Origin: Candidatus Gottesmanbacteria bacterium RIFCSPLOWO2_01_FULL_42_22
GTDB taxonomy: Bacteria; Patescibacteriota; Microgenomatia; 2-02-FULL-39-11
Direction of reading: 5' to 3'
Assembly (NCBI GenBank): GCA_001779315.1
Contig: MFJU01000004.1
Coordinates: forward strand, 6,753-70,752
Length of the DNA stretch: 64,000 nucleotides
This document shows positions 1-54,946 of this stretch, piece by piece (the stretch's first letter is position 1; the number at the start of each line of letters is the position of its first letter). The notes beneath the pieces were generated by a model. It made no database searches, was not told where the DNA came from, and saw only the letters and a program-made list of their open reading frames with translations. Both the position numbers and the translations under genes were made by a program.

Positions 1-2213
1 AGCGATGGAGTCGGTGTCAGAGTCGGTTTCGCTACAAAAGGCAACAGTTTTAATTTTTTGAAGTAAATAGTTCCCTCGACTCCCCTTTCGGAGGAAGTGC
101 TTTTTAATTCAATGGCATTTGAGGTATAAGCGGATCCCTGATTGGCGGTAAAATGCGGTCCCTGGTAATAAACCCACTCTCCTTGCGGTTTAAAGCCGTC
201 GTAAGTCCTTAACTCACTGGCCCACCAATACTTGGCAATGGGATCTAGATTGAAATACATGTTTAGTCTCATCTCGCTTCCCCTCTCTGTCCAGGTAGCT
301 TCCAAAGTTGTATATAGATTGCTGCCGGGATCTGAACGTACTTCAATAGATGTTCCCGGATCAGGTATACCGTAATATTTCTTGCCGTTGGCCATAATGT
401 AGAATGATTCAGTCTCCAGTTTGACTGTTTCAGTCGCCCATTTGATAATATTTTTCCCCTGATAATGACTGCGCCAGATATTCAAGTCCAGTCCTTCGAC
501 AGTGCCGTTATAATTGAAATCTCCGTCTCTGTTCCTGTTTTGGGTTGAGCGCCCGTAATTATTAAGCCAAATGACATAGTCCTGTCCGTCGACTTTACCG
601 TCCTCATTGGCGTCTCCCGGCATTAAATCATCAGGTCTGGTCGGTGTCGGGGTGATCGTCGGAGTCAGTGTCGGCGGCGGACACCACCATCCGCCTGAGG
701 GCAGGATACAGGCGGAATCAGTAGCGCTGCTATTGCATAAATCAGGTTTTGGCATGCAGGTCGGGGTGGGCGTTAAAGTAATAGTCGGTGTCGGGGTTAG
801 CGTCGGCGTCGGAATTACCGTCGGGGTCGGAGTCCTGGTCGGCGTAGCTGTCGGAGTCGGGGTATTACTTGGCGGTGGGCACCAGTAAAAGTCGGGAGGC
901 TGATCGCAATAAATGACATTGCCGTTTTCATCCGTTACTCCAGAAACACATGGCGGTAACGGCCGGCATATCGGTGTTGGGGTCGGCCCATTCCATTTAC
1001 AAAGTTCTTTATTATTGAAACTATAGGCAGGCATAGATGAAGTCGTATTTTGACAATAGTTATTTAATGACATTAGTTGAGATTTAACTGTGAAATTGGA
1101 TACTGCTCCTTTTGCCTTATAACAAGTTAGGGTGCCATCGTTGGAACAATTAACTCTGCCTGTAAAGCTTCTGGTATTGAAGGCCTTAGTTTCACGGCAA
1201 TAAGTGGAAGAAAAATAAGTCACGTAATTTCGTGAACTGTCGCTGCCTCCGCATAACTGGTTGGCGCTGTCATACCAGCCTGTAGGCAGCGGTGTGGGCG
1301 TGACCGTTGGAGAAACAGGCGGCCGAACGCAAGCTCCATTTGAGCAGCCCGAGGGACATGTCTGCAATCTGTTTATGGCATATTTACCGCCGTCAGCCGG
1401 ATTCCTCCAGCAGAACCATTCGGAAAGTAAGCCGGAATATGGAGGATTTGCCTGCCCCTCTTGGTTTACAACTGCATAAGCACAGTAATCTTCAAAAGTT
1501 TTTACCATACCATCCGGCTGTTTTTGCACGGTGGTCCCTTTTTGAAAATAGTCCAGTCCGTCAGGATACTCCGGGCTTACATCGGAATCAGTACAGCTGA
1601 CTGCTCCCGGGACCGGAGTCAAAGTACTTGTTGGAGGTACGACTCTGGCTACTTTCACGCTGCTATTGGTTGTAGATATTGGAGCGATTACCACCGAGGC
1701 GTTACTGACAACCTCAAGGTCGGAAACGGTTATCAGTTTGGGTTTTGAGGTCAACTCCCTGCCTATAAACCAGATATTGGCAATATTTAAAGCTTTGTCC
1801 GTTGGCGGTCCGCTGCCGGGCGTTTCTGCCGCCAGTTCGATCACCAGTTTGCCGTTTTCATTAGCTTTGGAGGGACTGTCCATTCTTATAATCTTGCTAA
1901 AACCGGAGCCTGATATGTCGATTTTTTTTTCAGTTGACAGTTTTAAATATTCTTCGGGGAAATTTATTTCGGCTTTGAAATAATCAAGTTTTTCCCCGGC
2001 TGAACCGTTATCGAAAACAGCTTTCAGGGAAAACATGGAGTCGGAATTCAAAGTTATGATGTTTTCAGTCGGATAAACAGCGATTGAGCCGCCTGTGGCG
2101 GCTGCTTCTTTCCTGGATTCAGTATTCAGTTTTATGGCATAAAGAGCCAATCCCAGGAAAATTAGCAACACCGGCAGACTGAGAAGGACTAATAACTTTT
2201 TATCTTTTATCAT
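1..2213 (-). CDS. Secreted Cys-rich, Pro/Thr-linker protein with an internal dockerin-like repeat pair. It is partial: the C-terminus runs off the window edge.
   Basis: I hand-translated the minus strand from the ATG (revcomp of 2211..2213) and found it open to coordinate 1. The ORF is absent from the supplied track, presumably because it has no in-window stop. It has an N-terminal signal peptide (MIKDKKLLVLLSLPVLLIFLGLALYA) and TPTPT linkers (antisense of the + strand GVGVGV ORF at 607..888). Dockerin-like duplicated calcium-binding segments are present (DANEDGKVDGQDYVIWLNN and DFNYNGTVEGLDLNIWRSH). A CPSGCSNGAC motif is paralogous to the neighbouring gene. Its ATG overlaps the upstream gene's stop as ATGA. 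Confidence 0.6.
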   Translation of the reverse strand, partial: MIKDKKLLVLLSLPVLLIFLGLALYAIKLNTESRKEAAATGGSIAVYPTENIITLNSDSMFSLKAVFDNGSAGEKLDYFKAEINFPEEYLKLSTEKKIDISGSGFSKIIRMDSPSKANENGKLVIELAAETPGSGPPTDKALNIANIWFIGRELTSKPKLITVSDLEVVSNASVVIAPISTTNSSVKVARVVPPTSTLTPVPGAVSCTDSDVSPEYPDGLDYFQKGTTVQKQPDGMVKTFEDYCAYAVVNQEGQANPPYSGLLSEWFCWRNPADGGKYAINRLQTCPSGCSNGACVRPPVSPTVTPTPLPTGWYDSANQLCGGSDSSRNYVTYFSSTYCRETKAFNTRSFTGRVNCSNDGTLTCYKAKGAVSNFTVKSQLMSLNNYCQNTTSSMPAYSFNNKELCKWNGPTPTPICRPLPPCVSGVTDENGNVIYCDQPPDFYWCPPPSNTPTPTATPTRTPTPTVIPTPTLTPTPTITLTPTPTCMPKPDLCNSSATDSACILPSGGWWCPPPTLTPTITPTPTRPDDLMPGDANEDGKVDGQDYVIWLNNYGRSTQNRNRDGDFNYNGTVEGLDLNIWRSHYQGKNIIKWATETVKLETESFYIMANGKKYYGIPDPGTSIEVRSDPGSNLYTTLEATWTERGSEMRLNMYFNLDPIAKYWWASELRTYDGFKPQGEWVYYQGPHFTANQGSAYTSNAIELKSTSSERGVEGTIYFKKLKLLPFVAKPTLTPTPS

Positions 2214-3682
2214 CTTTTACCCCTATTATCCAACCATTTCACAAAATCCAATCCGTCTATATATTTATCTTGATTGAAATCCGCCCTCAGGTCAAGACAT
2301 ATCTTACCCTGGTTAGGATAACATTGGCTGTTTAGCCAGACGGAATAATCCAGACCGGAAATTTTGCCGTCGCAGTTGGCATCACCGTATTTTCTTTTGC
2401 TGCAAACAACAGCAGTTATTGGTACTTTGGTCGGAGTAATTGTCGGTGTAAAAGTAGGTGTCGGAGTTACCGGACAGATCCAACCACCGGGAGGTAGATA
2501 AATTTCCGGGCAGGTATTCCCCCAAGCTCCGCTGGGACAGGGTGGTGGAGGCGGTACACATGTCGGAGACGGCGTTATTGTTGGTATCGGCGTTTCTGTC
2601 GGGGTAGGTATGACACTATTGTTGTAATAAACGATTAATTGGGGAGCTGAATTGGAGGGGCCGCTTTCTCTGGAATAGAAACCGGTGTTGTTGCTTGAGT
2701 CAGCTGATAAAATGAATGAATATTCCCCGTTGCCTTTTATGGCGGATGTGACATCATACCAGACAAATCTGTAAGGGGGCACCTTATAAAGGTTATCCAG
2801 AGCTTCACCGATTTTGGCCGGTCTGTTGTTATGATTCAGTGTCGCTTCATTCCAATTATTTGAGGTCAGATAAATCGCCGGAGCATTACCCGATCCGTCA
2901 TAGGTAGTTTTCAAAAAAAGTAAAGCTTTGGTGACTGCTCCATTTACTCCCTCAGCTTTGGCTTTTATGTATGAGTGGCGGACAGGGCTTGAATCTACAA
3001 TCAGAAATCCGTCACTCCCGGTGTTTAAATCAGGTTGTGATCTGTCTGTATAGGCATCGGCAACTAACGGAAAACTTGCTTTGGCTGATTCATAAGGAGT
3101 CGGTGGCGGTGAAACCGGGCACCAGACTTCGTTAGGATTTGGATTGCAGTAATCGATAGATCCATCAGTCTTCTTTTCCCCGTCAGCACATAACGGTCTT
3201 TGTGTACAACCCGAGGCGGAAGGAGGTGTAAGCTGCTGACTGCAGGCTCCATCAGAACAACCATATGGACAATTTATGGAAACGCTGTCGATTATCTGCT
3301 GGCCGTTGGATTTTGTCCGGCAGGCATGCTCAACCAGAACTGTTTGAGGAATACAGCTAGGATCAGAAGATAAGCATTCCTGAAGAAGGCAGGTGTCCTG
3401 GATTGTCACCGCGCTTCCATCCGGGACAAGGCCGGTTGTTGTGCCTTTTAGAGAAGAAATTTTACCTCCGTCCGAATCAGAACAGGCAACAGGTGTAGGC
3501 TTGGCAGTGGAGGAAGGCTGCTGGTATGTTTGGGTTTGCAAATCCGAGGCTTTGGGGAAAAATCTGGAGCCGACTTCAACCAGTTTATTGCCGGCGAAAA
3601 TACCGGCGGTCAAAACGGCCATTCCGGCCAGAACCGCCACTAATGTTATGTCTCCCCTCTCCTTTTTAATTCGAGCAGGCAT
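2210..3682 (-). CDS. Secreted protein with a signal anchor, Cys-rich region, DNRLRE-like domain, PT-rich linkers and a C-terminal dockerin (type I-like) pair.
   Basis: The ORF track has 2210..3793. I prefer the internal start MPARIKKERGDITLVAVLAGMAVLTAGIFAG at 3682, which gives a signal anchor. The NWNEATLNHNNRP...FVWYDVT motif resembles the DNRLRE domain. PT linkers include TPTETPIPTITPSPT. The C-terminus (DANCDGKISGLDYSVWLNS and DFNQDKYIDGLDFVKWLDN) is dockerin-like. Confidence 0.7.
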   Translation of the reverse strand: MPARIKKERGDITLVAVLAGMAVLTAGIFAGNKLVEVGSRFFPKASDLQTQTYQQPSSTAKPTPVACSDSDGGKISSLKGTTTGLVPDGSAVTIQDTCLLQECLSSDPSCIPQTVLVEHACRTKSNGQQIIDSVSINCPYGCSDGACSQQLTPPSASGCTQRPLCADGEKKTDGSIDYCNPNPNEVWCPVSPPPTPYESAKASFPLVADAYTDRSQPDLNTGSDGFLIVDSSPVRHSYIKAKAEGVNGAVTKALLFLKTTYDGSGNAPAIYLTSNNWNEATLNHNNRPAKIGEALDNLYKVPPYRFVWYDVTSAIKGNGEYSFILSADSSNNTGFYSRESGPSNSAPQLIVYYNNSVIPTPTETPIPTITPSPTCVPPPPPCPSGAWGNTCPEIYLPPGGWICPVTPTPTFTPTITPTKVPITAVVCSKRKYGDANCDGKISGLDYSVWLNSQCYPNQGKICLDLRADFNQDKYIDGLDFVKWLDNRGKR

Positions 3683-5232: not shown

Positions 5233-5916
5233 TTAGGATCCGGGATTTTTTGCATCAGCGAGTACAACCGCTTCAGGAATTGAATAAAGAATTGAGGCCG
5301 GAAAAATATTTAAACCCTCCTCTGATTCCCGTTCCAATTTCCATAAAACTTGCTTTTTTGTTTTACCTGCCAGGCAAACCACTGCAAAATTGCACTGTTG
5401 AAATGCTTTAGGGGTAAGTGTAATTCTTTGAGGAAATCTGCCTTTATTCTCATACCCTACCGCAAATGTGTCTTTATCCCATAATTTCCGGTAACCGGGC
5501 AGCAGTCCTACCGTATGCCCGTCATCCCCTATGCCTAAAATAGCGATACGAAAATCAGTATTTTTATACAGTTTAGAAATAGTTTGATTATATTTTTGCG
5601 CGGACTCCTCCATTGTTCCTTTTTGATCTACAGCATAAAAAGTTAAACCGCTTTTTTCTATCTGATAGGCATTAATGTCCTCTTTATTTTCAGGCTGAAA
5701 ACGCTCATCGGCTTGTGCAATTGTCAAAAAATGAGGTTTTTTGGACAGGTTTTTCAGTTTTTCGGCAAAGAGCGGGTAGATATTAACGGCAGAACCTGCG
5801 GAAAGAAGAAGCAAGGTTTTTTGGGAGCTGGCAATTACAGCATCAATTTTTTCCGAAATTATGTCAGCCGCTTTGTGCCAAATTGATCGCCTGTCTGTCT
5901 TAACAATCTTAATCAT
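5233..5916 (-). CDS. pgl: 6-phosphogluconolactonase / glucosamine-6-P isomerase superfamily protein (Pgl-like).
   Basis: Motifs LSAGSAVNIYP, ADERF, ILGIGDDGH and RITLTPKAF match the 6PGL/NagB fold signatures (LAGG..TP, DER, GxGxDGH, R[VI]TLT). Confidence 0.7.
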   Translation of the reverse strand: MIKIVKTDRRSIWHKAADIISEKIDAVIASSQKTLLLLSAGSAVNIYPLFAEKLKNLSKKPHFLTIAQADERFQPENKEDINAYQIEKSGLTFYAVDQKGTMEESAQKYNQTISKLYKNTDFRIAILGIGDDGHTVGLLPGYRKLWDKDTFAVGYENKGRFPQRITLTPKAFQQCNFAVVCLAGKTKKQVLWKLERESEEGLNIFPASILYSIPEAVVLADAKNPGS

Positions 5917-5923
5917 TTTTTTC

Positions 5924-6946
5924 CTAATCGGGATTCTCCAAAAACCTCAGCAGTTCCTCTTTTTTGGCCAAAGTCGTCTTGACCGCCACTACTCCTTTTT
6001 CCGGTTGACCGTACAAAACCAGCGATCCGAGCGGAGATAAAAGAATGGCTGGTAGGGATGCCAGATCTTCCTCCCCGGCGACCTCAATTGCCCTTAATTT
6101 GCCGTCCGTAAGTGACTCTTTGAGATTCCTTTTTATAACTTTGACTAATTCGTCAGTGATATGACCGGCAGGATTTGAAACTTTACTATGGGCAGATATT
6201 TTTCCGAAGGCCAAATCAGCTAATTTCTGATGCTTTTTAATTCTCTTTACGTGAAAATCCACGATAGCCAATTGGTACCTGAATTCTAACTTATTCATCA
6301 TATAGACCACTTCGTCGCCGACGGCCGTTATCATTACCGGCTTTATTTTATCTATCTGCTCCTTTAGTTTTTTTCCGATTTTCAGGATATCATCCTCGGG
6401 ATTTTTTATCAGGATTCCTATGGGAGATTTCAGCTTTAACCGCAGGTTTTGCGGCAGCTTCCTGCCGAAGATATGCAAATCAGCCATTAGCTGGCCAAAG
6501 CGGTTGATCTCACCCATCCTGATTCTGCTGGATGAAATAGCTTTGCCGTCCTCGGCCATGACTAAATCCATTGTTTCCAACTTTAATTGAGGCAGGCCTG
6601 ATTTCCCTCTTTTTTGGTTTACTTTTTCTCCGCCTGTCCGGGAATCGGCAGTGACCAATAAAGCCTCAATCTCATTTTCTGCTGTCGCTGGTCCATAAAC
6701 ATCATCGATTTTTACAATCTCAACCCGCGGCCGGAAATTTTGCTCTTTTATAAAGAGCATCAACTCCCGTTTCCTATCACTATAATTCTTAATTTTAATT
6801 TTGGATTTTTCTTTTACAAAAGAATCAGAGGTTAGTCCAATAATGACTCTTTCACTTAAATCAAAAGCCTGGGAAATAAAACGATGGTGTCCTTTATGCA
6901 AACGGTCAAAAGTACCGGCAATGGCGATCTGGCGGTATTTCATCAA
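5924..6946 (-). CDS. Cytidylyltransferase-fold (archaeal-type PPAT-like, HxGH) N-domain fused to a DUF359-like C-domain. I infer it is a candidate bifunctional PPAT/dephospho-CoA kinase.
   Basis: The N-terminus IAGTFDRLHKGHHRFI is the HxGH nucleotidyltransferase motif. The C-terminal half (VGDEVV...AGEEDLASLPA) resembles DUF359/COG1909. There is a 4-nt ATGA overlap with upstream glgA. Confidence 0.55.
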   Translation of the reverse strand: MMKYRQIAIAGTFDRLHKGHHRFISQAFDLSERVIIGLTSDSFVKEKSKIKIKNYSDRKRELMLFIKEQNFRPRVEIVKIDDVYGPATAENEIEALLVTADSRTGGEKVNQKRGKSGLPQLKLETMDLVMAEDGKAISSSRIRMGEINRFGQLMADLHIFGRKLPQNLRLKLKSPIGILIKNPEDDILKIGKKLKEQIDKIKPVMITAVGDEVVYMMNKLEFRYQLAIVDFHVKRIKKHQKLADLAFGKISAHSKVSNPAGHITDELVKVIKRNLKESLTDGKLRAIEVAGEEDLASLPAILLSPLGSLVLYGQPEKGVVAVKTTLAKKEELLRFLENPD

Positions 6947-48049: not shown

Positions 48050-50806
48050 TCACATTCTCTCGACAGTCTCAATCCCCAGAAGCCATAAACCTTTTTTGAT
48101 TATTTTTGAGGTTGTATGCGTTAAAGCCAGCCTGAATAGGGAAGCTTGATTTTGCTTTTGATTGCCCAAAATCAGGTGTTTACTGTAAAAAACATTGTAC
48201 TTCTGAGCCAAACCGTATAAATAGGCAGCTATTGCCGAAGGCAAAAAATTCCTGCCGGCCTCTAAAACGACCTCTTCAAACTGATAAAACGTTCTCAACA
48301 GATCTTTTTCTTCTTCATTTAACTTTTTTCCATACTTAATACTTGATACCATATACTTAATACCGCGATCTTCGGCCTTACGAAGCACACTCCGGCATCT
48401 GGCATAGGTATATTGCAAATACGGCCCGCTGTCGCCCTCGAAATTGACCGACTTTTCCAAATCAAAAACAATGTCAGCCGGCAGAGCTACTTTCAAAAGC
48501 GAATATTTTATGGCGGCCACCGCAGTTTTCTCCAAAATAAGCTCGGATTCCGCTTTTGTGTAGTTGTCTGATCCGGTATTATGCAGCCTCTCTTTCAGCT
48601 TCGTTTTAACCATTTCCAGGAGCGCTTCTCCGGATATTATCTTGCCGGTCCTGGAGCTCATTTTGCCTTCCGGCAGTTTGACGAGGCCGTGTCCGAGATG
48701 TCTGGTTTTAGAAGCCAAATCAGGCTTGACGAGTGACAGCACCTTCAATAAAACCTGGAAATACTCATTGATCTCTTTGGCCGTAACGATCATCGAAAAA
48801 TCATACTGGAAGTCTTTATATTTAGTCGGCGCCAACCCCAACTCTTTAGTTTCATATGTCGGCAAACCTAATGCGTTGATAAATACACGGGTGTGAAGAC
48901 CGTATTTTTCTCCCCGGAAGACTGTCGCTCCCTCGCTTTTTTCGAAAATACCCTTTTCCAAACCTTCTTTGACAATCTGCAGGCCGTATTCACCGACAAT
49001 CGATTCCGGGTAATAGTAATCAAATTTTGCTCCCAGACGCCTATAAATGCTTTCAAAATAAGCTAAACTCCACTCCCGGCCCTTTTGAAACAGACTGCCC
49101 ACTTCCTGAATTTCTTTTTCATCTGCTTTGACGAATTGCCGGTAATTAATCCGGGGCTCCCATTTCATCTTTTTCTGCATGTAATCCTGGGCGGCAACAA
49201 AGACCAGATAGTTTATCTTATTCATCTCTTCCTTAGCTTTCTCATCCTCTTCGAAAGCGGTCGCACCAATTGCATAAGCTTCACCCAGATACTTCACTTT
49301 TTGAGTTAAGGATTTATTATCCATGTTTTTGGCCAGCTTCTTCATCCCCCAGATTGATTTGGCCACATGCATGCCGACATCGCCGAAATAATTCGCCCGT
49401 GCAACCTTGGCGCCCAACTCTTCATTTATCCTGGCAATAGATTCCCCTACGCTGTTACTGTATACGTGACCGATGTGAAACTCCTTAAAGGGATTGGGGT
49501 CGGTAAACTCTATAATCATCTTTTTACCTGTTTTCACGCTCTTTCCATAATCTGGCGCTCGTCCCATTTGACTGATAAGGTATTTTTCAGCCAGGAAGAT
49601 GTTGATAAAGCCGGGAAGCACTGCTTTTACATTCTCCAGGACATCTGATACTATAAATTTACTACCAGTATAATCATTACTATAAGTACTATATGACATC
49701 GATTGACCGCTTCCTATATACTTATTTAGTTGTTGGCTTATCTTTTCCGCTAATTCAATAGGTTTGACTTTTATTTTAGAAGCCGTAATCATGGCTAGAT
49801 TAGATGAATAATCCCCATAGTTTTTGCTGGAAGGATGCTCGAGTTTTATATCCCCGTATCTGATTCCAGAGTCCGGATAAAGTTTTTGAAAGGCCGAAAG
49901 AAGGGCGGATTTGATTTTTTTATCCGTGGAAACTTCGGCGTTTTCCAGTAAAGGATTGACCGCGGTTTTACTTTTTTCCGGGACTTTTTTTACTTTTTTC
50001 TCCCTTTCCCCGGATTTGATTAAGTCCTGTTTATTTTCTTTTAAATGTTCTTTTTTTGCCCGTTCAAAGGAAAACTCGATTGACTGTTTGTTTTGGGATA
50101 GAATTGCGGATTCGGTCCCGGCCTTAAAATGCATCTTTATATGTTGCTCCGCCTCTTCCAGAGCCTCGCTCAACTTCTCACGGGATAATGACGGCGCTTT
50201 TTCGACAACCAGGACGGCGTTGACCGTCTCTTTATCAATCTTTGTCCTGTCAGCCTCCCGCCAGTTCCATTTGCGGCAGATAAAGCCCTCCTCGTCCTGG
50301 TAGATGACTTCCCCGGGATCGCACTTTTCAGGCTGTGTTGAGCCGATAGTTATCCCCTCCTCATTGCCGGAAGCAAAAGTCAGCCGGATATCACCTTTAA
50401 CCTTATCCAGGTCCTCTGCTCCGGCCGGGAGGTGAAATTTTAATGACAGGTAGTTATAGAGATCTACTAGCTTGTTGATATGCGGTATTTCCTTATTACC
50501 GGCTCTAGCCCGTCTCAACAATGATTCAACCGAAGAGCGATAATCTTTGGGATGAGAGCCAAACGAGCGGTATATCTCGCGCCACTGGGAAATTTCCGGC
50601 AGGCTACCTATCTCCGTCTCGGCTAAAAGCATCTTCTGATTGGCCTCCTCTATCCGCAGCAGCTTCAAAATCTCCTCATTCCGGCCTGTATTATCCATCC
50701 CTTTGATGACAATCACCCCGATCTCAACCCCCGGATATTTCTCAAAAATTTGATTGATTATGATAAATTTCATCTTGACTTGCCTCTTTTTATTTGATAT
50801 ATTCAA
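48050..50806 (-). CDS. argS: Arginyl-tRNA synthetase with an N-terminal B3/4-domain (COG3382-like) fusion of ~290 aa.
   Basis: The ArgS core is FTDPNPFKEFHIGH (HIGH), an Arg_tRNA_synt_N-like segment from ~residue 300, and a DALR anticodon-binding C-terminus. The N-terminal LVDLYNYLSLKFHLPAGAEDLDKVKGDIRLTFA...NAVLVVEKA matches the PheT B3/4 domain pattern (Nyv..e.G.P.HafDldk..g.i..r.A). The track start is a TTG; ATG at 50773 is an alternative. Confidence 0.85.
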   Translation of the reverse strand: MNISNKKRQVKMKFIIINQIFEKYPGVEIGVIVIKGMDNTGRNEEILKLLRIEEANQKMLLAETEIGSLPEISQWREIYRSFGSHPKDYRSSVESLLRRARAGNKEIPHINKLVDLYNYLSLKFHLPAGAEDLDKVKGDIRLTFASGNEEGITIGSTQPEKCDPGEVIYQDEEGFICRKWNWREADRTKIDKETVNAVLVVEKAPSLSREKLSEALEEAEQHIKMHFKAGTESAILSQNKQSIEFSFERAKKEHLKENKQDLIKSGEREKKVKKVPEKSKTAVNPLLENAEVSTDKKIKSALLSAFQKLYPDSGIRYGDIKLEHPSSKNYGDYSSNLAMITASKIKVKPIELAEKISQQLNKYIGSGQSMSYSTYSNDYTGSKFIVSDVLENVKAVLPGFINIFLAEKYLISQMGRAPDYGKSVKTGKKMIIEFTDPNPFKEFHIGHVYSNSVGESIARINEELGAKVARANYFGDVGMHVAKSIWGMKKLAKNMDNKSLTQKVKYLGEAYAIGATAFEEDEKAKEEMNKINYLVFVAAQDYMQKKMKWEPRINYRQFVKADEKEIQEVGSLFQKGREWSLAYFESIYRRLGAKFDYYYPESIVGEYGLQIVKEGLEKGIFEKSEGATVFRGEKYGLHTRVFINALGLPTYETKELGLAPTKYKDFQYDFSMIVTAKEINEYFQVLLKVLSLVKPDLASKTRHLGHGLVKLPEGKMSSRTGKIISGEALLEMVKTKLKERLHNTGSDNYTKAESELILEKTAVAAIKYSLLKVALPADIVFDLEKSVNFEGDSGPYLQYTYARCRSVLRKAEDRGIKYMVSSIKYGKKLNEEEKDLLRTFYQFEEVVLEAGRNFLPSAIAAYLYGLAQKYNVFYSKHLILGNQKQNQASLFRLALTHTTSKIIKKGLWLLGIETVERM

Positions 50807-50828: not shown

Positions 50829-51341
50829 CTAATTTAGGGTCTCCCTCTTTTTTTTATACTCTAGTAAATACTTCAGGCTCCCAAAATCAATATGTTTGTC
50901 CCCCACTATCTTTTTTAACTCTTTCGCTGTTCTTTTTGGAGATGAAATAATAATTATTTCCTTCTTCTTTGAAATCAAATATTTAAAAAGCGGCGCAAAA
51001 TCTCCATCTCCGGTCAGAACAATGGCTTTGTGATATTCTTTTATCATTAAAAGCATATCCATGGTTAAATCGACATCACAATTTGCTTTTGTGCGCGTTC
51101 CGAATCTCTTGATTTCCTTTACTCTTAAAATATAACCGAACTGTTTTAGTTTCTTCAAAAAATTCTCTTTATGTATATTTTTTGAATCCTTCCCATAATA
51201 AAAGAAAGCTTTTTTAACCGAAAATTTATACTTTAAATACCTGATTAATTTTTTCTGGTCGATATACCAGCCTTCCGCTTTGGCACCGTAAATTATGTTT
51301 GAAGCGTCTACAAAGGCAAAACAACCGATCTTTCTTTTCAT
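50829..51341 (-). CDS. NYN/LabA-like (PIN-fold) domain protein.
   Basis: AFVDASNI, TGDGDFAPL and related motifs are typical of NYN domains. It sits between argG and argS in the same operon. Confidence 0.65.
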   Translation of the reverse strand: MKRKIGCFAFVDASNIIYGAKAEGWYIDQKKLIRYLKYKFSVKKAFFYYGKDSKNIHKENFLKKLKQFGYILRVKEIKRFGTRTKANCDVDLTMDMLLMIKEYHKAIVLTGDGDFAPLFKYLISKKKEIIIISSPKRTAKELKKIVGDKHIDFGSLKYLLEYKKKRETLN

Positions 51342-51359: not shown

Positions 51360-52613
51360 CTACTTAATCTGTTTCTGGTTGGAAAGCCTCATCTGCAGAG
51401 AATATATCTCTATAAATCCGGCGGAACAATTGGTATTAAAGGCAAAACCGTCACTATTGGAAAATGAGGCATAATCCAGCGCATACGGAGATTCCAAAGC
51501 AACTATTGTCGCCTGGCCTTTATACAACCTTACTGTAACTTTTCCGATTACTTTTTTATTAACCTCCTCATTGAAACAATTGATAGCCTTCATTACAGGA
51601 TCAAACCATAAAGCACCATAACATAAATAACCCCACTTTATGTCCAGTTCCGACTTCAACTGGTTCAGTTTTCTGGTCGAGACATACTTTTCCAGATCCT
51701 TATGGGCGGCAATAATGACCGCAGCAGCGGGCATTTCATAAACGCCTCTGGTCTTGAGGCCAACCAGCCTGTCTTCCAAAAGATGGACCACTCCGACTCC
51801 ATGTTTTCCAACAATCACATTCAGCTTCTGGACAAGATCGGCCAATTTATACTTTTTGCCATTCAGGCTGACCGGTAAACCATTCTCAAATTCCAGAACG
51901 ATTACTTCCTCTTTATCCGGCGCTTTGCTGGCTAAAGTATAAGTTGTCAGAAATTTTTCCAGTTGGGGAATTTCACTGGGGATTTCCACCTCACCTCCTT
52001 CCCAGGTCATGCCCCACATATTGTCATCGACACTATAGGGAAAATCAATTGAAGAGGGAATGGGAATCTTATTTTTCTGGGCATATTTGATTTCCTCACT
52101 CCTATCCATCGACCATTCCCTGACAGGTGCGATGATTTTTATTTTGGGATCATGGGTCAGAATATAGCCTTCCAGCCTGACCTGGTCATTGCCTTTTCCG
52201 GTACAGCCGTGGGCTATCGTCTCTACTTCGAGCTTCTTGGCGGCTTCGACAGTTTTGACAGCCATCAAAGCCCTACCTATAGGTGTCGACAAATGGTAAT
52301 TTCCCTGGTATGAGGCGTTGGCCTTGATTGCCAAAGAAAGATAACTTTCGGCAAACTCGTCTTTGACATTCCAGACTAGGGCTTTTTTAGCCCCAAACCT
52401 CACTGCTTTCTGGCGGATGGCTTCCAGATTATCATGTTGCTGCCCCAAATCAAGGGTCAGCGTATAAACTTCCGCCTTGTATTGGTCCTGAATCCACTTC
52501 AGCATGACGCTGGTATCCAGGCCTCCCGAATACAGAAGCAGTACTTTTTTGACTTCTCCGTAATTTCCTTCATAACTTGAGACTTTTTTATATAAATGGT
52601 TATTTTTTAGCAT
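51360..52613 (-). CDS. argG: Argininosuccinate synthase.
   Basis: VLLLYSGGLDTSV (PP-loop SGGxDTS) is present. The length is 417 aa. Confidence 0.9.
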   Translation of the reverse strand: MLKNNHLYKKVSSYEGNYGEVKKVLLLYSGGLDTSVMLKWIQDQYKAEVYTLTLDLGQQHDNLEAIRQKAVRFGAKKALVWNVKDEFAESYLSLAIKANASYQGNYHLSTPIGRALMAVKTVEAAKKLEVETIAHGCTGKGNDQVRLEGYILTHDPKIKIIAPVREWSMDRSEEIKYAQKNKIPIPSSIDFPYSVDDNMWGMTWEGGEVEIPSEIPQLEKFLTTYTLASKAPDKEEVIVLEFENGLPVSLNGKKYKLADLVQKLNVIVGKHGVGVVHLLEDRLVGLKTRGVYEMPAAAVIIAAHKDLEKYVSTRKLNQLKSELDIKWGYLCYGALWFDPVMKAINCFNEEVNKKVIGKVTVRLYKGQATIVALESPYALDYASFSNSDGFAFNTNCSAGFIEIYSLQMRLSNQKQIK

Positions 52614-52657: not shown

Positions 52658-53845
52658 TCATCTCTGCCGGTATCGCGCGGCAATTCTTCTGTATGCCTGC
52701 CTGAATGAATGGCCTTTTTTTACTAATTTATAAGCCTCCTCTGCCGCATGCAATTCGGGTGTATCAGCCTGTTCTAATTTTTCTTTGACCGGTTTCAAAT
52801 TCTTAACCAGAATCAGCATCATTTCCAGTGACTCTAAAGTCTGTTCTATACTGTCAAACAAAGGCCTTTTGATTTCCTGGAAATCCCTGTGATAACCGGA
52901 CATCAAATTGGCTGCCAAGCCGGTAATATTTATGTAATTGGCTGTCAGGCGGTGAACTTTACTCCTGAGAAGCTCGGCTATATCCAAATTCTTTTTATGG
53001 GGCATGATGGAACTGCCGCTGGTTAAAGACTTATCAATCTCTATAAAACCCAAAGTATCTGAAGAAAAGAACAACAAATCAGAGACAAATTTATTGATAG
53101 TCAAGGCTAATGAGATTAAAGAGGAAACAACCACAGCCTCGGATTTACCGCGGCTGTTTTGGCAATATAGAGCATTCTCAATAATAGCAGAGAAACCGAT
53201 ATCAGAAGCAGCAGCTGATCTGGGATAATCAAGAGGCAGACCATAGCCGGCACCTGTGCCTAACGCTGATTTATCTGTAATCTTTAAAGCAGCTTTCATC
53301 TGAATTACGTCATCCTGGAAACTCTCGGAGAAACTATGTAGCCAGGCTCCGAAAGTATAAGGCATGGCTTTTCTCGTATGGGTGAATCCGGGCATAAATA
53401 ACTTTGAATATTTATCTCCCGATTGATCGATCAGTCTCATCGCAGCCTTTACTTTTTTGATGATTTCCTCCAAATTTTCTTTGATATATAACCTGGTAGC
53501 CGTTGCCACCTGGTCGTTTCTGGATCTGGCGGTATGGATCTTCTCTCCGGCCAAACCAAGTTTTTCTGTCAGGTGCGCTTCGATTGCCGTATGCATGTCC
53601 TCATCACCCATTTTCAAATGAAATTTCCCTTGCTCAACTAGAATAGTTAGACTATTGAGACAATCCAAAACCTGCCTCAATTCTTTTTTTCCGTAAATGC
53701 CCATCAGAAACAGGCTCTTAGCATGGGCTTTTGTACCTAAAAGGTCATATTTTAGCAGTTTTTGATCCATGGCAAGATCTTCCTTTGTCTCAAAGGCTTC
53801 GACTTTTTTATCCAATTCCCAGTTTGTCTGCCAAAGTTTTTTCAT
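52658..53845 (-). CDS. argH: Argininosuccinate lyase.
   Basis: GSSIMPHKKNLDIAEL is the fumarate-lyase signature GSSxMPxKxN. The N-terminal MKKLWQTNW aligns with the ArgH start (M.LWGGRF). The track's longer ORF to 54034 starts at TTG and would run through the T-box/terminator, so it is rejected. Confidence 0.85.
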   Translation of the reverse strand: MKKLWQTNWELDKKVEAFETKEDLAMDQKLLKYDLLGTKAHAKSLFLMGIYGKKELRQVLDCLNSLTILVEQGKFHLKMGDEDMHTAIEAHLTEKLGLAGEKIHTARSRNDQVATATRLYIKENLEEIIKKVKAAMRLIDQSGDKYSKLFMPGFTHTRKAMPYTFGAWLHSFSESFQDDVIQMKAALKITDKSALGTGAGYGLPLDYPRSAAASDIGFSAIIENALYCQNSRGKSEAVVVSSLISLALTINKFVSDLLFFSSDTLGFIEIDKSLTSGSSIMPHKKNLDIAELLRSKVHRLTANYINITGLAANLMSGYHRDFQEIKRPLFDSIEQTLESLEMMLILVKNLKPVKEKLEQADTPELHAAEEAYKLVKKGHSFRQAYRRIAARYRQR

Positions 53846-54118
53846 ATAAAAACTCCCGTCTCCTGCTACAAAATATTTGTAACAAAGGACGGGAGTTCCC
53901 GTGGTGCCACCTTTATTCTCAACTGCACAATAAAACTTCTGTTTTTTACCCGCCGTAGCTTTATGCGAAGGTGGGTAAGCCTTGACAGAAGTCACAGTTG
54001 ACTCAATTTTATGAAACCTACTTAGTCCCGCCAATCGGCGGGGCTTTTCTTCAGTTCCTGGCTCCGGGGCTCGTCCTCCGATTCGGAGGGTTCCCCTTCA
54101 TCGCCTATTTGGATGTCA
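53846..54118 (-). promoter_or_regulatory. T-box riboswitch leader (tRNA-sensing transcription attenuator) for the argH-argG-NYN-argS operon. Its promoter -10 TATAAT (minus strand) is at 54125..54130.
   Basis: Minus strand at + coordinates 53898..53914: AAAGGUGGCACCACGGG compares with the T-box consensus AGGGUGGNACCGCGG. The antiterminator is AAAG[GUGGCACC]ACGGG-AACU-CCCGU-CUUU. The alternative perfect 9-bp terminator is ACUCCCGUC...GACGGGAGU (53852..53896), followed by UUUUUAU and directly by the argH ATG (53843..53845). The Stem I base resembles glyQS (GGCGAUGAAG ... CUGAAGAAAAGCC). Further GC hairpins lie at 54024..54043 and 54076..54090. Confidence 0.55.
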
Positions 54119-54250
54119 TCTTCTATTATACACGGACTGTCAATACTCTAATAATCTGATTGCCTGGACTAATGCCCGGGCATGAGGATCGAACAGATCA
54201 TCTGATTATGGTTTGAATCAATGCCCGGCGACCTGTTATGCTGAAAAAGC

Positions 54251-54946
54251 ATGGACACTTCATTTGAAAGGCCGCCCGCAGAAAAACAGAATTTTCCATC
54301 TGGAAAATTGGTTGATAGTTTTTTGAATTTCTATTCAAATATATTCAAACTTCCCGGAAGACCTTCAGCGGAAGAATTCGGGCTCTATGAGAGAAGCGAT
54401 CTGGAATCATTTATTGCCGGGCTGCCCAAACAGGAAGCTGATTACTGGCGGCATTTGGTTAAAATTATAGGACGCTCTCATGACGTCAATTATTGGGCGG
54501 TGCAGCCTGGTTCGAATATGGAGAACTTTAACCGGTCGATCGCTGCTTTTCAGGAAATTTCCAATTCAGGTTTTTTTTCTTACCCTGCTGTCAAAAAAGC
54601 TCAGGATATTTATGAAAAAACTTTACGGAAAATTCGTTCGGAAAAAGGAGGTTTTATCCCTCAATCTTATGTCGAGTATAAAAAAGACGGAAGTTTTTCA
54701 GATTGGGATATTGCCGTTAAAGGGGTATTTCTCAGAAGCGGCATAGATTGGCAGTCGAAGACAACCGGCTCGGAAGCCGATCTTTACCTGACGTTAGGTA
54801 AAGCAGCCGGCAATGCTTCGCTTAAATTTGCCGAGATAATGAATGAAAAACCCGGTTTGATAGGCCGGTTTATTTCCGCTATAAAAAACAGACTTACTTA
54901 CCCTCTTAAACCGCTAGAACAAGCTGTCAAGATTCCTGTTGGCTGA
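54251..54946 (+). CDS. Hypothetical protein (231 aa).
   Basis: ORF only. It is divergent from the arg operon. Confidence 0.45.
   Translation: MDTSFERPPAEKQNFPSGKLVDSFLNFYSNIFKLPGRPSAEEFGLYERSDLESFIAGLPKQEADYWRHLVKIIGRSHDVNYWAVQPGSNMENFNRSIAAFQEISNSGFFSYPAVKKAQDIYEKTLRKIRSEKGGFIPQSYVEYKKDGSFSDWDIAVKGVFLRSGIDWQSKTTGSEADLYLTLGKAAGNASLKFAEIMNEKPGLIGRFISAIKNRLTYPLKPLEQAVKIPVG

Follow-up and report, generated by a model that had tools for sequence, protein, structure and literature searches.

T-box riboswitches follow a standard logic in which an antiterminator competes with a terminator (PMC7778990, PMC11297988), and arginine genes are among their described targets: C. difficile carries T-boxes on argG, argH, and argC (PMC11477304), argS of Bacillus cereus has an arginine T-box (PMC2494555), and TBDB lists an Arg family (PMC7778990). 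Actinobacterial class II T-boxes have been described that lack the elbow platform of Stem I (PMC11297988). For the Candidate Phyla Radiation (CPR, Patescibacteria), our literature search found no description of a T-box riboswitch, and a recent perspective on these bacteria names riboswitches only as tools to import (PMC11665869). Here, we analyzed the leader of ~270 nt that precedes the minus-strand genes argH-argG-NYN-argS in a 64,000-nt stretch (hereafter, the window) of contig MFJU01000004.1 from the groundwater Microgenomates genome Candidatus Gottesmanbacteria bacterium RIFCSPLOWO2_01_FULL_42_22. The first-pass annotation of this DNA had proposed a T-box at this place, a proposal now borne out by an Rfam alignment, conservation upstream of argH in relatives, covariation, and two alternative folds, while its remark that such control is unusual for arginine biosynthesis does not stand, given the arginine-gene T-boxes of C. 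difficile (PMC11477304). Our conclusion, to which we assign a probability of roughly 0.8, is that the leader is an arginine-tRNA-specific T-box that controls argH-argG-NYN-argS through transcription attenuation; the narrower claim that the leader is a T-box is stronger still and can be regarded as very highly probable.

The argH leader and its T-box landmarks

The minus strand between 54105 and 53846 carries the landmark set of a T-box, namely Stem I, Stem II, Stem III, the T-box sequence, an antiterminator, and a terminator (Table 1). The Rfam T-box model RF00230 aligned end to end (positions 1-219) on 54110..53882 with 45.9 bits (regional E-value, 7.4e-09; E-value over the whole window, 6.7e-07), was the sole non-tRNA match at E <= 0.1 in the window, and reached the maximal posterior probability ('*') over nearly all of the antiterminator part. 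The T-box consensus and the antiterminator with its UGGC bulge, both reported at first reading, were recovered in place, with the window sequence (AAGGUGGCACCACG) agreeing with the 14-nt consensus (AGGGUGGNACCGCG) at 12 of 14 positions and the two deviating positions still paired, as A-U. Compared with dinucleotide shuffles, the complete leader has a folding z-score of -5.9. Weak Trp_leader and Phe_leader matches on the plus strand, at a terminator-like hairpin (54024..54045), were set aside as the reverse complement of the Stem II apical hairpin, and no plus-strand gene ends at 54024..54045.

This identification is further strengthened by conservation in related genomes. All 11 of the distinct Microgenomates-like loci that were fetched have the T-box core 66-135 nt upstream of argH (L001, L105/106, L107/108, L109/110, L111, L112/113, L114/115, L116, L117, L118, and L119-121), once per locus and nowhere else in these loci, and it is also present in L002 and in the distant L030, L035, and L041, there before argG-argH. 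The useful homologues were obtained by exact-protein look-ups; a metagenome scan with an ArgH alignment (ultra-conserved motifs) returned mostly 31-45% relatives and few T-boxes. RF00230 gave 97.3 bits for L035, above the gathering score, 84.3 for L002, and 59.7, 55.2, 54.9, 53.6, 46.2, 38.9, and 37.4 for other relatives, with the CPR relatives at 37-55 bits, and it missed several leaders entirely although their T-box core is obvious. No T-box was found at the argH loci of Parcubacteria and Saccharibacteria or at the closest metagenome loci (L025-L029). The regulated operons continue from argH-argG into OTC, GNAT, DDAH, arginase, or carAB, all of them arginine/citrulline genes, and argS follows in the window, L114, and L118/L119. 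Leaders of the window type were recognized in the window, L001, L117, L118, L119, and L002, and their alignment with MAFFT brought into register the kink-turn (K-turn), (A/U)CGAG with the lower helix, GAAGAAA, AAGUAG, AAAUGAG, CUGU(C/U/A)AAGGCU, and the T-box core.

The covariation analysis that had been suggested as a check supports Stem I, Stem II, Stem III, and the antiterminator through compensatory changes, in a small set of six close and three distant leaders. Using RNAalifold, double changes were found at 10 of 13 pairs of the Stem I lower helix and Stem II (10 or more in 2 of 500 shuffles), with 92.3% of cells paired as compared to 69.8% in shuffles and a covariation score of 0.90 against 0.41, and sliding the partners by 1-3 columns lowered pairing to 18-64%. 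For the Stem III outer helix and antiterminator helix A1, 98.5% of cells were paired and 7 of 12 pairs showed double changes (0/500 shuffles), and this pairing likewise collapsed when the partners were slid by 1-3 columns. Explicit strand tables further showed that the Stem III inner helix, antiterminator helix A2, and the Stem I lower helix pair in every leader. The lower helix of Stem I, for instance, appears as GGGG:CCCC, GAGAG:CUCUC, AGGGG:CCUCU, GCGAA:UUCGC, and UGGG:CCCA, and A2 as GG:CC, UU:AA, UA:UA, and AU:AU, while A1 is 100% paired.

In a six-leader alignment, the base and apical helices of Stem II carry compensatory double changes in 8 of 9 pairs, and swapping strands between leaders weakened the mean folding energy from -5.7 to -2.0 kcal/mol. 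The Stem III outer helix shows double changes in 5 of 6 pairs, with 96.8% of cells paired; in the same alignment-free control, Stem III gave means of -8.8 for its own strands and -2.5 kcal/mol for swapped ones, and the inner helix is paired in 6/6 leaders despite sequence change. Invariant segments stand beside these variable helices: GAAGAAA and AAGUAG of the Stem II S-turn in nine leaders, the T-box core in the nine aligned leaders, and AAGGCU in the Stem III inner loop of the window, L001, L002, L117, L118, and L119, where the flanking helices vary by compensation. When a pairing partner for AAGGCU was sought, the sole complementary conserved segment was the C-stem strand of the K-turn (AGCC), which is already paired; the loop may be a tertiary or tRNA contact standing in for the apparently absent Stem IIA/B pseudoknot.

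Predicted specifier codon, candidate tRNA, and the proposed antitermination switch

In T-boxes, the specifier codon is followed by a single purine, the final unpaired base ahead of the helix. Applied across the leaders, this codon-purine rule gives CGA in seven (the window, L001, L117, L118, L119, L035, and L041), CGC in L030, and AGA in L002, so that the codon slot is always arginine (9/9 leaders, all before arginine genes). The window itself has the K-turn (GA motif) base and CGA-G directly 5' of CCCC, and the Rfam alignments place the codon in the specifier slot of the model ('GAAauucaCC'). The first-pass annotation had listed AGG-A, AGA-A, and CGG-A as candidate specifiers, none of which occupies the specifier position: AGG-A and CGG-A belong to the apical helix or the K-turn, and AGA-A is part of the S-turn of Stem II. 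Judged from the leader sequences, arginine appears to be the only consistent reading of the specifier.

The string ACGAG could in principle be read one nucleotide off, in which case the T-box would sense a non-arginine tRNA, either Thr (ACG then A) or Glu (GAG). ACG-A is indeed found in the window, L001, L035, and L041, and the specifier loop is atypical (at most 7 nt on its 3' side, G after the codon), with a register that is not proven. However, over the nine leaders the -1 register yields ACG, UCG, AAG, and ACG-C and the +1 register yields GAG, GCG, and GAG followed by C or U; both shifted registers mix amino acids and often lack the purine, whereas a single amino acid, arginine, results only from the register that ends before the last unpaired G. 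The downstream operons also consist entirely of arginine/citrulline genes, three with argS, and a specificity other than arginine is thus very improbable.

Concerning the ligand, G73 is the discriminator base that the UGGC bulge predicts for the tRNA-Arg. The tRNA-Arg(CCU) of the window has A73, as had been pointed out, and cannot be the ligand, its anticodon being wrong as well. A tRNA-Arg(UCG) with G73, which fits both CGA and UGGC, is encoded in the Microgenomates locus L116 (12602..12674); the tRNA search over 35 loci returned one tRNA-Arg only. A coordinated switch of codon and discriminator base (CGA with UGGC vs AGA with UGGU) was considered and rejected, as L035 and L041 pair CGA with UGGU.

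With a folding energy of -9.5 to -10 kcal/mol, the antiterminator is the minimum free energy (MFE) structure of the nascent RNA up to 53883. The terminator reuses the 3' half of the antiterminator as its 5' arm, and because both folds need the strand CUCCCGUCCUUU, the 24-bp terminator would displace the antiterminator once its 3' arm is made. The mutually exclusive terminator and U-run described at first pass were thus upheld, except that the helix is not just a perfect 9-bp one: the 24-bp hairpin contains a perfect 10-bp run (AACUCCCGUC/GACGGGAGUU). Each homologous leader has an equivalent hairpin (~-16 to -43 kcal/mol) followed by a U-run.

The course of regulation that we infer is as follows. 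After transcription has initiated at a putative start site near 54118, the truncated Stem I would offer CGA to the anticodon of tRNA-Arg (UCG, or ACG with inosine), assisted by the Stem II S-turn. An uncharged tRNA would pair its free G73-C-C-A 3' end with the UGGC of the bulge, stabilize the weak antiterminator, and let the polymerase enter argH, whereas a charged tRNA could not cap the bulge, so that the far stabler terminator would form and transcription would stop in the U-run before the ATG. Arginine shortage would in this manner raise the citrulline-to-arginine steps, the last two of arginine synthesis, together with arginyl-tRNA synthetase.

The position of the terminator hairpin invites another possibility, namely that the same T-box has a translational or dual output, the hairpin burying -55 to -4 relative to the AUG and blocking ribosome binding, much like the ileS T-boxes of Actinobacteria. 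The U-run abuts the start codon, GGGAG stands in the terminator 3' arm 7 nt before the ATG (a GGAG-like motif at this place is shared by the window, L001, L002, L117, L118, and L116), no space is left for another ribosome-binding site, and translational T-boxes typically have a short Stem I (PMC11297988, PMC7778990). Against this, Shine-Dalgarno (SD)-like motifs are barely used, occurring upstream of 6 of 40 long open reading frames (ORFs) window-wide as compared to a near-equal background of 10.7% in random 20-mers, with none before argG, NYN, or argS, and the purine-rich arm is dictated by the need to pair with the conserved CGUCCUU strand. In all leaders, the hairpin is immediately followed by a U-run, the hallmark of intrinsic termination, and the leaders with a separate downstream start (L105-L112, L119, L030, and L035) keep both hairpin and U-run. 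Sequestration of the SD sequence as the main mechanism was downgraded owing to the weak SD usage, and we regard a translational or dual output as possible but rather unlikely.

Several features weigh against an arginine-specific attenuator. The purine after the codon, more usually A in T-boxes, is G here; the U-run contains only five uninterrupted U; and the cognate tRNA is absent from the window, whose tRNAs are tRNA-Arg(CCU, A73) and tRNA-Pro only. The distal Stem I platform (AG bulge and distal loop), present in L002 and L035, is missing, 21 nt standing in the place of 74 model positions, and the window lacks the AGUA/GAA S-turn of the specifier loop, which L001, L002, and L035 possess. No Stem IIA/B pseudoknot (F-box) is recognizable in the window leader, where the Stem II-Stem III linker is 11 nt long (9-11 nt, A-N-AAAUGAG, in six close leaders) and the Rfam alignment over this segment consists of gaps and positions of low posterior probability; a tertiary element of non-canonical form may take its place. 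Moreover, 45.9 bits is half the RF00230 gathering score of 93, so that the Rfam scan suggested at first pass is negative at the gathering threshold, where the window returned two tRNAs and zero T-boxes, and positive in E-value mode only. The low score has two sources, the 21 nt that replace the 74-nt distal Stem I and a poorly aligning segment from Stem II to the T-box; the shortfall stems from the deleted distal Stem I and IIA/B region and not from the core. Nor is the elbow platform obligatory for the T-box family, since it is also missing in actinobacterial class II (PMC11297988).

The same apparent losses, of the elbow platform, S-turn, and IIA/B pseudoknot that are important in model T-boxes, together with the low Rfam score, could also mark a decayed relic or constitutive attenuator in which tRNA sensing is lost and the hairpin keeps read-through at a fixed low level or is governed by a protein. 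We consider this quite improbable, as the T-box core, UGGN, the CGA-G position, and the S-turn strands are kept over roughly 50% ArgH divergence, five helices carry compensatory changes, and actinobacterial T-boxes function without the elbow platform (PMC11297988). An arginine-responsive T-box remains the preferred reading.

Operon, argH start, promoter region, and a second leader type

The leader sits in a 405-nt gap between argH and a divergent plus-strand ORF (54251..54946). The four minus-strand genes downstream, argH-argG-NYN-argS, were confirmed by ORF, Pfam, and NCBIfam evidence, are separated by gaps of 44, 18, and 22-55 nt, and show no terminator-like site in these gaps on the minus strand. 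ArgH scores 292.9 against TIGR00838 (cut-off, 279.5) and ArgS 316.1 against TIGR00456 (cut-off, 261.65), both above threshold; the argS product has 918 aa counted from a TTG start and 907 aa according to gene callers. The NCBIfam search with the NYN-domain protein gave no matches. An identical ArgH protein occurs in GCA_001779135.1 (MFJH01000034) and several groundwater metagenome assemblies, the closest non-identical one (53% identity) is from Candidatus Gottesmanbacteria, and ~120 homologues at ~50% identity bear the names Daviesbacteria, Levybacteria, Gottesmanbacteria, and Microgenomates.

Several peculiarities of these genes were noted in passing. ArgH is short, covering only positions 9-384 of the 455 of TIGR00838, and the usual C-terminal domain ASL_C2 is absent or very weak, as in most Microgenomates homologues (390-405 aa). 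The N-terminus of the arginyl-tRNA synthetase (ArgRS) is a B3/4 domain of ~290 aa (PF03483, E = 2.6e-25), of the tRNA-binding/editing type of the phenylalanyl-tRNA synthetase (PheRS) beta subunit. In Patescibacteria, this domain is commonly a standalone ~234-aa 'PheRS beta subunit-related' protein; the B3/4-ArgRS fusion was seen in a few Gottesmanbacteria-like genomes only (the window, L118 4358..7207, L119 5212..8061, P0121, and P0127), its gene being invariably the last of a T-box-controlled arg operon, and the ArgRS of L114 is of the plain form (585 aa). The NYN protein, a predicted RNase fold, lies between argG and argS in the lineage of the window only, its place being taken in relatives by OTC and/or a GNAT acetyltransferase. 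The start regions of argG, NYN, and argS (52613, 51341, and 50806/50773) are AU-rich.

The start codon of argH bears on whether the leader is noncoding. An open frame from TTG 54034, given in the ORF track and suspected at first pass to be an artifact, would yield a 458-aa ArgH or a leader peptide and make the RNA structure incidental, and one JGI call of 445 aa (P0001) shows that certain callers extend into the leader. Nevertheless, M1, K3, L4, and W5 are invariant from ATG 53845 in 22 aligned ArgH homologues, the ENA, NCBI, and JGI calls on five contigs give a 395-aa ArgH from the ATG, and the Lyase_1 and TIGR00838 alignments begin inside the short form (residues 22 and 10). The upstream DNA, furthermore, is kept as RNA helices with compensatory changes and not as codons. 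A coding role for this region is barely credible, and the extension is an artifact, as had been suspected. In L119 (1085..1136), the U-run still abuts an AUG, but one that opens only a six-codon ORF (MFTLSD); the argH start is a GUG 45 nt downstream, with AAGGAG ahead of it, and it looks as if the start codon had recently moved away from the terminator.

Upstream of the leader, the TATAAT -10 reported at first pass is present. The nearby TTGACA (54143..54138) is only 7 nt from it, a spacing that rules it out as a canonical -35. The TTGACA-N7-TATAAT/TATACT arrangement recurs in L001 (~5696..5714), L118/L119 (L118 ~5..23), and L116 (~5703..5721), and in L001 and L118/L119, Stem I follows the promoter-like pair at a distance of 18-21 nt. 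Window-wide, and allowing at most one mismatch per hexamer, pairs with spacers of 7 and 8 nt number 12 and 15 (~6.5 in shuffles), an enrichment equal to that of pairs with the canonical 17-nt spacer (14 vs 6.9), and 10 of the 27 short-spacer pairs are intergenic, intergenic DNA making up 12% of the window. TTGACA/TATAAT with a 7-8 nt spacer may be an unusual promoter geometry of the lineage.

A second T-box architecture was observed before argH-argG in Daviesbacteria, Levybacteria, and other Microgenomates. Its Stem I, which resembles the 'ultrashort' actinobacterial Stem I yet goes with a retained terminator, consists of a K-turn and a 6-bp hairpin with CGC in the terminal loop (CGCA or GUCGCG; AGCA in L111). 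These leaders have a canonical IIA/B hairpin with pseudoknot covariation (GAC:GUC in L111, GUC:GAC in L116) and an extra conserved hairpin (AGCGUGUCGG-AACGGAGCGCU), most of them have a separate start region downstream of the terminator (the U-run of L116 directly adjoins the AUG), and Rfam detects 2 of the 6 that were scanned. The ACGG-loop-CCGU hairpin of Daviesbacteria/Levybacteria, whose loops contain AGA or CGC, had been considered as the specifier carrier; this idea was dropped because Rfam places the hairpin at Stem IIA and because covariation links its loop to a triplet further downstream, the pattern that a IIA/B pseudoknot would produce.

Table 1. Features of the argH leader and operon in window coordinates, with the specifier region of related leaders and the second-type leaders in the coordinates of their own loci.
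Feature	Position	Strand	Sequence or remark
Probable promoter	54130..54125	-	TATAAT, read from sequence
Stem I, truncated	54105..54060	-	K-turn base, lower helix, specifier loop, apical hairpin
Stem I K-turn, 5' side	54105..54103; 54102..54098	-	GGC; GAUGA
Stem I K-turn, 3' side	54064..54063; 54062..54060	-	GA; GCC
Stem I lower helix	54096..54093 / 54069..54066	-	GGGG / CCCC
Stem I apical hairpin, 6 bp	54089..54075	-	CCUCCG-AAU-CGGAGG
Predicted specifier (Arg) and purine	54073..54071; 54070	-	CGA; G, last unpaired base before lower helix
Stem II	54058..54013	-	
Stem II base helix	54058..54053 / 54018..54013	-	GGAACU / GGUUUC
Stem II S-turn strands	54052..54046; 54023..54018	-	GAAGAAA; AAGUAG
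Stem II apical hairpin	54044..54025	-	
Linker	54006..54002	-	UUGAG
Stem III, elaborated	54001..53919	-	
Stem III outer helix	54001..53995 / 53925..53919	-	UCAACUG / CAGUUGA
Stem III inner helix	53992..53985 / 53942..53935	-	ACUUCUGU / ACAGAAGU
Stem III conserved loop	53984..53977	-	CAAGGCUU
T-box sequence	53914..53898	-	AAAGGUGGCACCACG from 53914; AAAGGUGGCACCACGGG
Antiterminator A1	53914..53910 / 53888..53884	-	AAAGG / CCUUU
Antiterminator A2	53902..53898 / 53893..53889	-	ACGGG / CCCGU
Antiterminator bulge, 7 nt	53909..53903	-	UGGCACC; UGGC 53909..53906, predicted partner tRNA 3' end G73-C-C-A
Terminator hairpin	53900..53848	-	24 bp, one internal mismatch, 3-nt loop; MFE -30.4 to -32.2 kcal/mol
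U-run	53852..53846	-	UUUUUAU, abuts argH ATG
argH, argininosuccinate lyase	53845..52658	-	395 aa, ATG start; Pfam Lyase_1; TIGR00838
argG, argininosuccinate synthase	52613..51360	-	417 aa; Pfam Arginosuc_synth, Arginosuc_syn_C
NYN-domain protein	51341..50829	-	170 aa; PF01936, E = 3.2e-20
argS, arginyl-tRNA synthetase	50806..48050	-	Pfam B3_4, Arg_tRNA_synt_N, tRNA-synt_1d, DALR_1
Specifier loop 3' side / lower helix, window			GGA-CGAG / CCCC
Specifier loop 3' side / lower helix, L001			GAA-CGAG / CUCU
Specifier loop 3' side / lower helix, L002			GAAGAGAG / CCUC
Specifier loop 3' side / lower helix, L030			GAA-CGCG / UUCG
Specifier loop 3' side / lower helix, L035			GAA-CGAG / CUCC
Specifier loop 3' side / lower helix, L041			GAA-CGAG / CCC
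Specifier loop 3' side / lower helix, L117			ACCU-CGAG / CCCC
Specifier loop 3' side / lower helix, L118			AUCAU-CGAG / CUCUC
Specifier loop 3' side / lower helix, L119			AUCUU-CGAG / CUCUC
Second-type leader, L105	~5770..6000		
Second-type leader, L107	~2150..2423		
Second-type leader, L109	~5760..6000		
Second-type leader, L111	5783..6000		
Second-type leader, L112			
Second-type leader, L114			
Second-type leader, L116	5733..6000		

Significance and comparison with known T-box systems

While this kind of element is already known, its CPR/Microgenomates host, the degree of its reduction, and the position of a whole clade below the Rfam threshold are apparently new. Regulation in CPR/Patescibacteria is almost unexplored, and the leader supplies a testable mechanism by which Microgenomates appear to gauge their arginine supply through tRNA-Arg charging, coupling the citrulline-to-arginine steps to ArgRS. 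Standard annotation is blind to the Microgenomates leaders (below 93 bits), and a clade-specific model would probably reveal more of them. The series of leaders from a full-length Stem I (L002) to the 21-nt stub of the window could also reveal how much of a decoding module a T-box requires. It could tentatively be proposed, as a possibility of modest likelihood, that the Microgenomates T-box is a distinct minimal subclass without elbow platform, often without specifier S-turn, and without IIA/B, in which AAGGCU of Stem III positions the tRNA or Stem II and one hairpin at the start codon gates both transcription and translation. If true, no smaller natural decoding module would be known among T-boxes with a Stem II, and current models would be missing a CPR-wide regulator.

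Among described systems, the window leader resembles the Firmicutes class I arginine T-boxes in its K-turn, the codon-purine at the 3' end of the loop, the Stem II S-turn, Stem III, the 14-nt T-box, the 7-nt UGGN-ACC bulge, and the competing intrinsic terminator, and like those of C. difficile and B. cereus, it is associated with arginine synthesis and ArgRS genes. Unlike the class I elements, it has no distal AG-bulge/distal-loop platform, AGUA/GAA S-turn, or recognizable IIA/B, its Stem III is long and, as is particular to this clade, has a second helix inside with the invariant AAGGCU loop, its U-run touches the start codon, and it belongs to a CPR/Microgenomates host and scores below the Rfam threshold.

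With the ileS T-box of Mycobacterium tuberculosis, the leader shares a short Stem I without tRNA-elbow contact, a retained Stem II (PMC11297988), and a purine-rich strand, complementary to the T-box 3' half, near the start codon; the specificities differ, being Ile for ileS in M. tuberculosis and, as we read it, Arg for argHG-argS here. In the actinobacterial type, however, the IIA/B pseudoknot and F-box are essential (PMC11297988), whereas they are not recognizable here, and the sequestrator there has no U-run, whereas the long hairpin with UUUUUAU indicates transcription termination. The U-run in all leaders, the lack of a recognizable IIA/B hairpin, and the weak use of SD sequences likewise set the window leader apart from the translational class II. 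With glyQS, finally, the leader has in common the K-turn base (GCGAUGA ... GGAGC), the UGGN bulge, and the terminator/antiterminator switch; glyQS lacks Stem IIA/B, and none is recognizable in the window leader. The likeness of the Stem I base to glyQS, drawn at first pass, therefore holds for the K-turn base and not for the rest, as glyQS combines a full-length Stem I and elbow platform with no Stem II, whereas the window leader combines a truncated Stem I with a Stem II.

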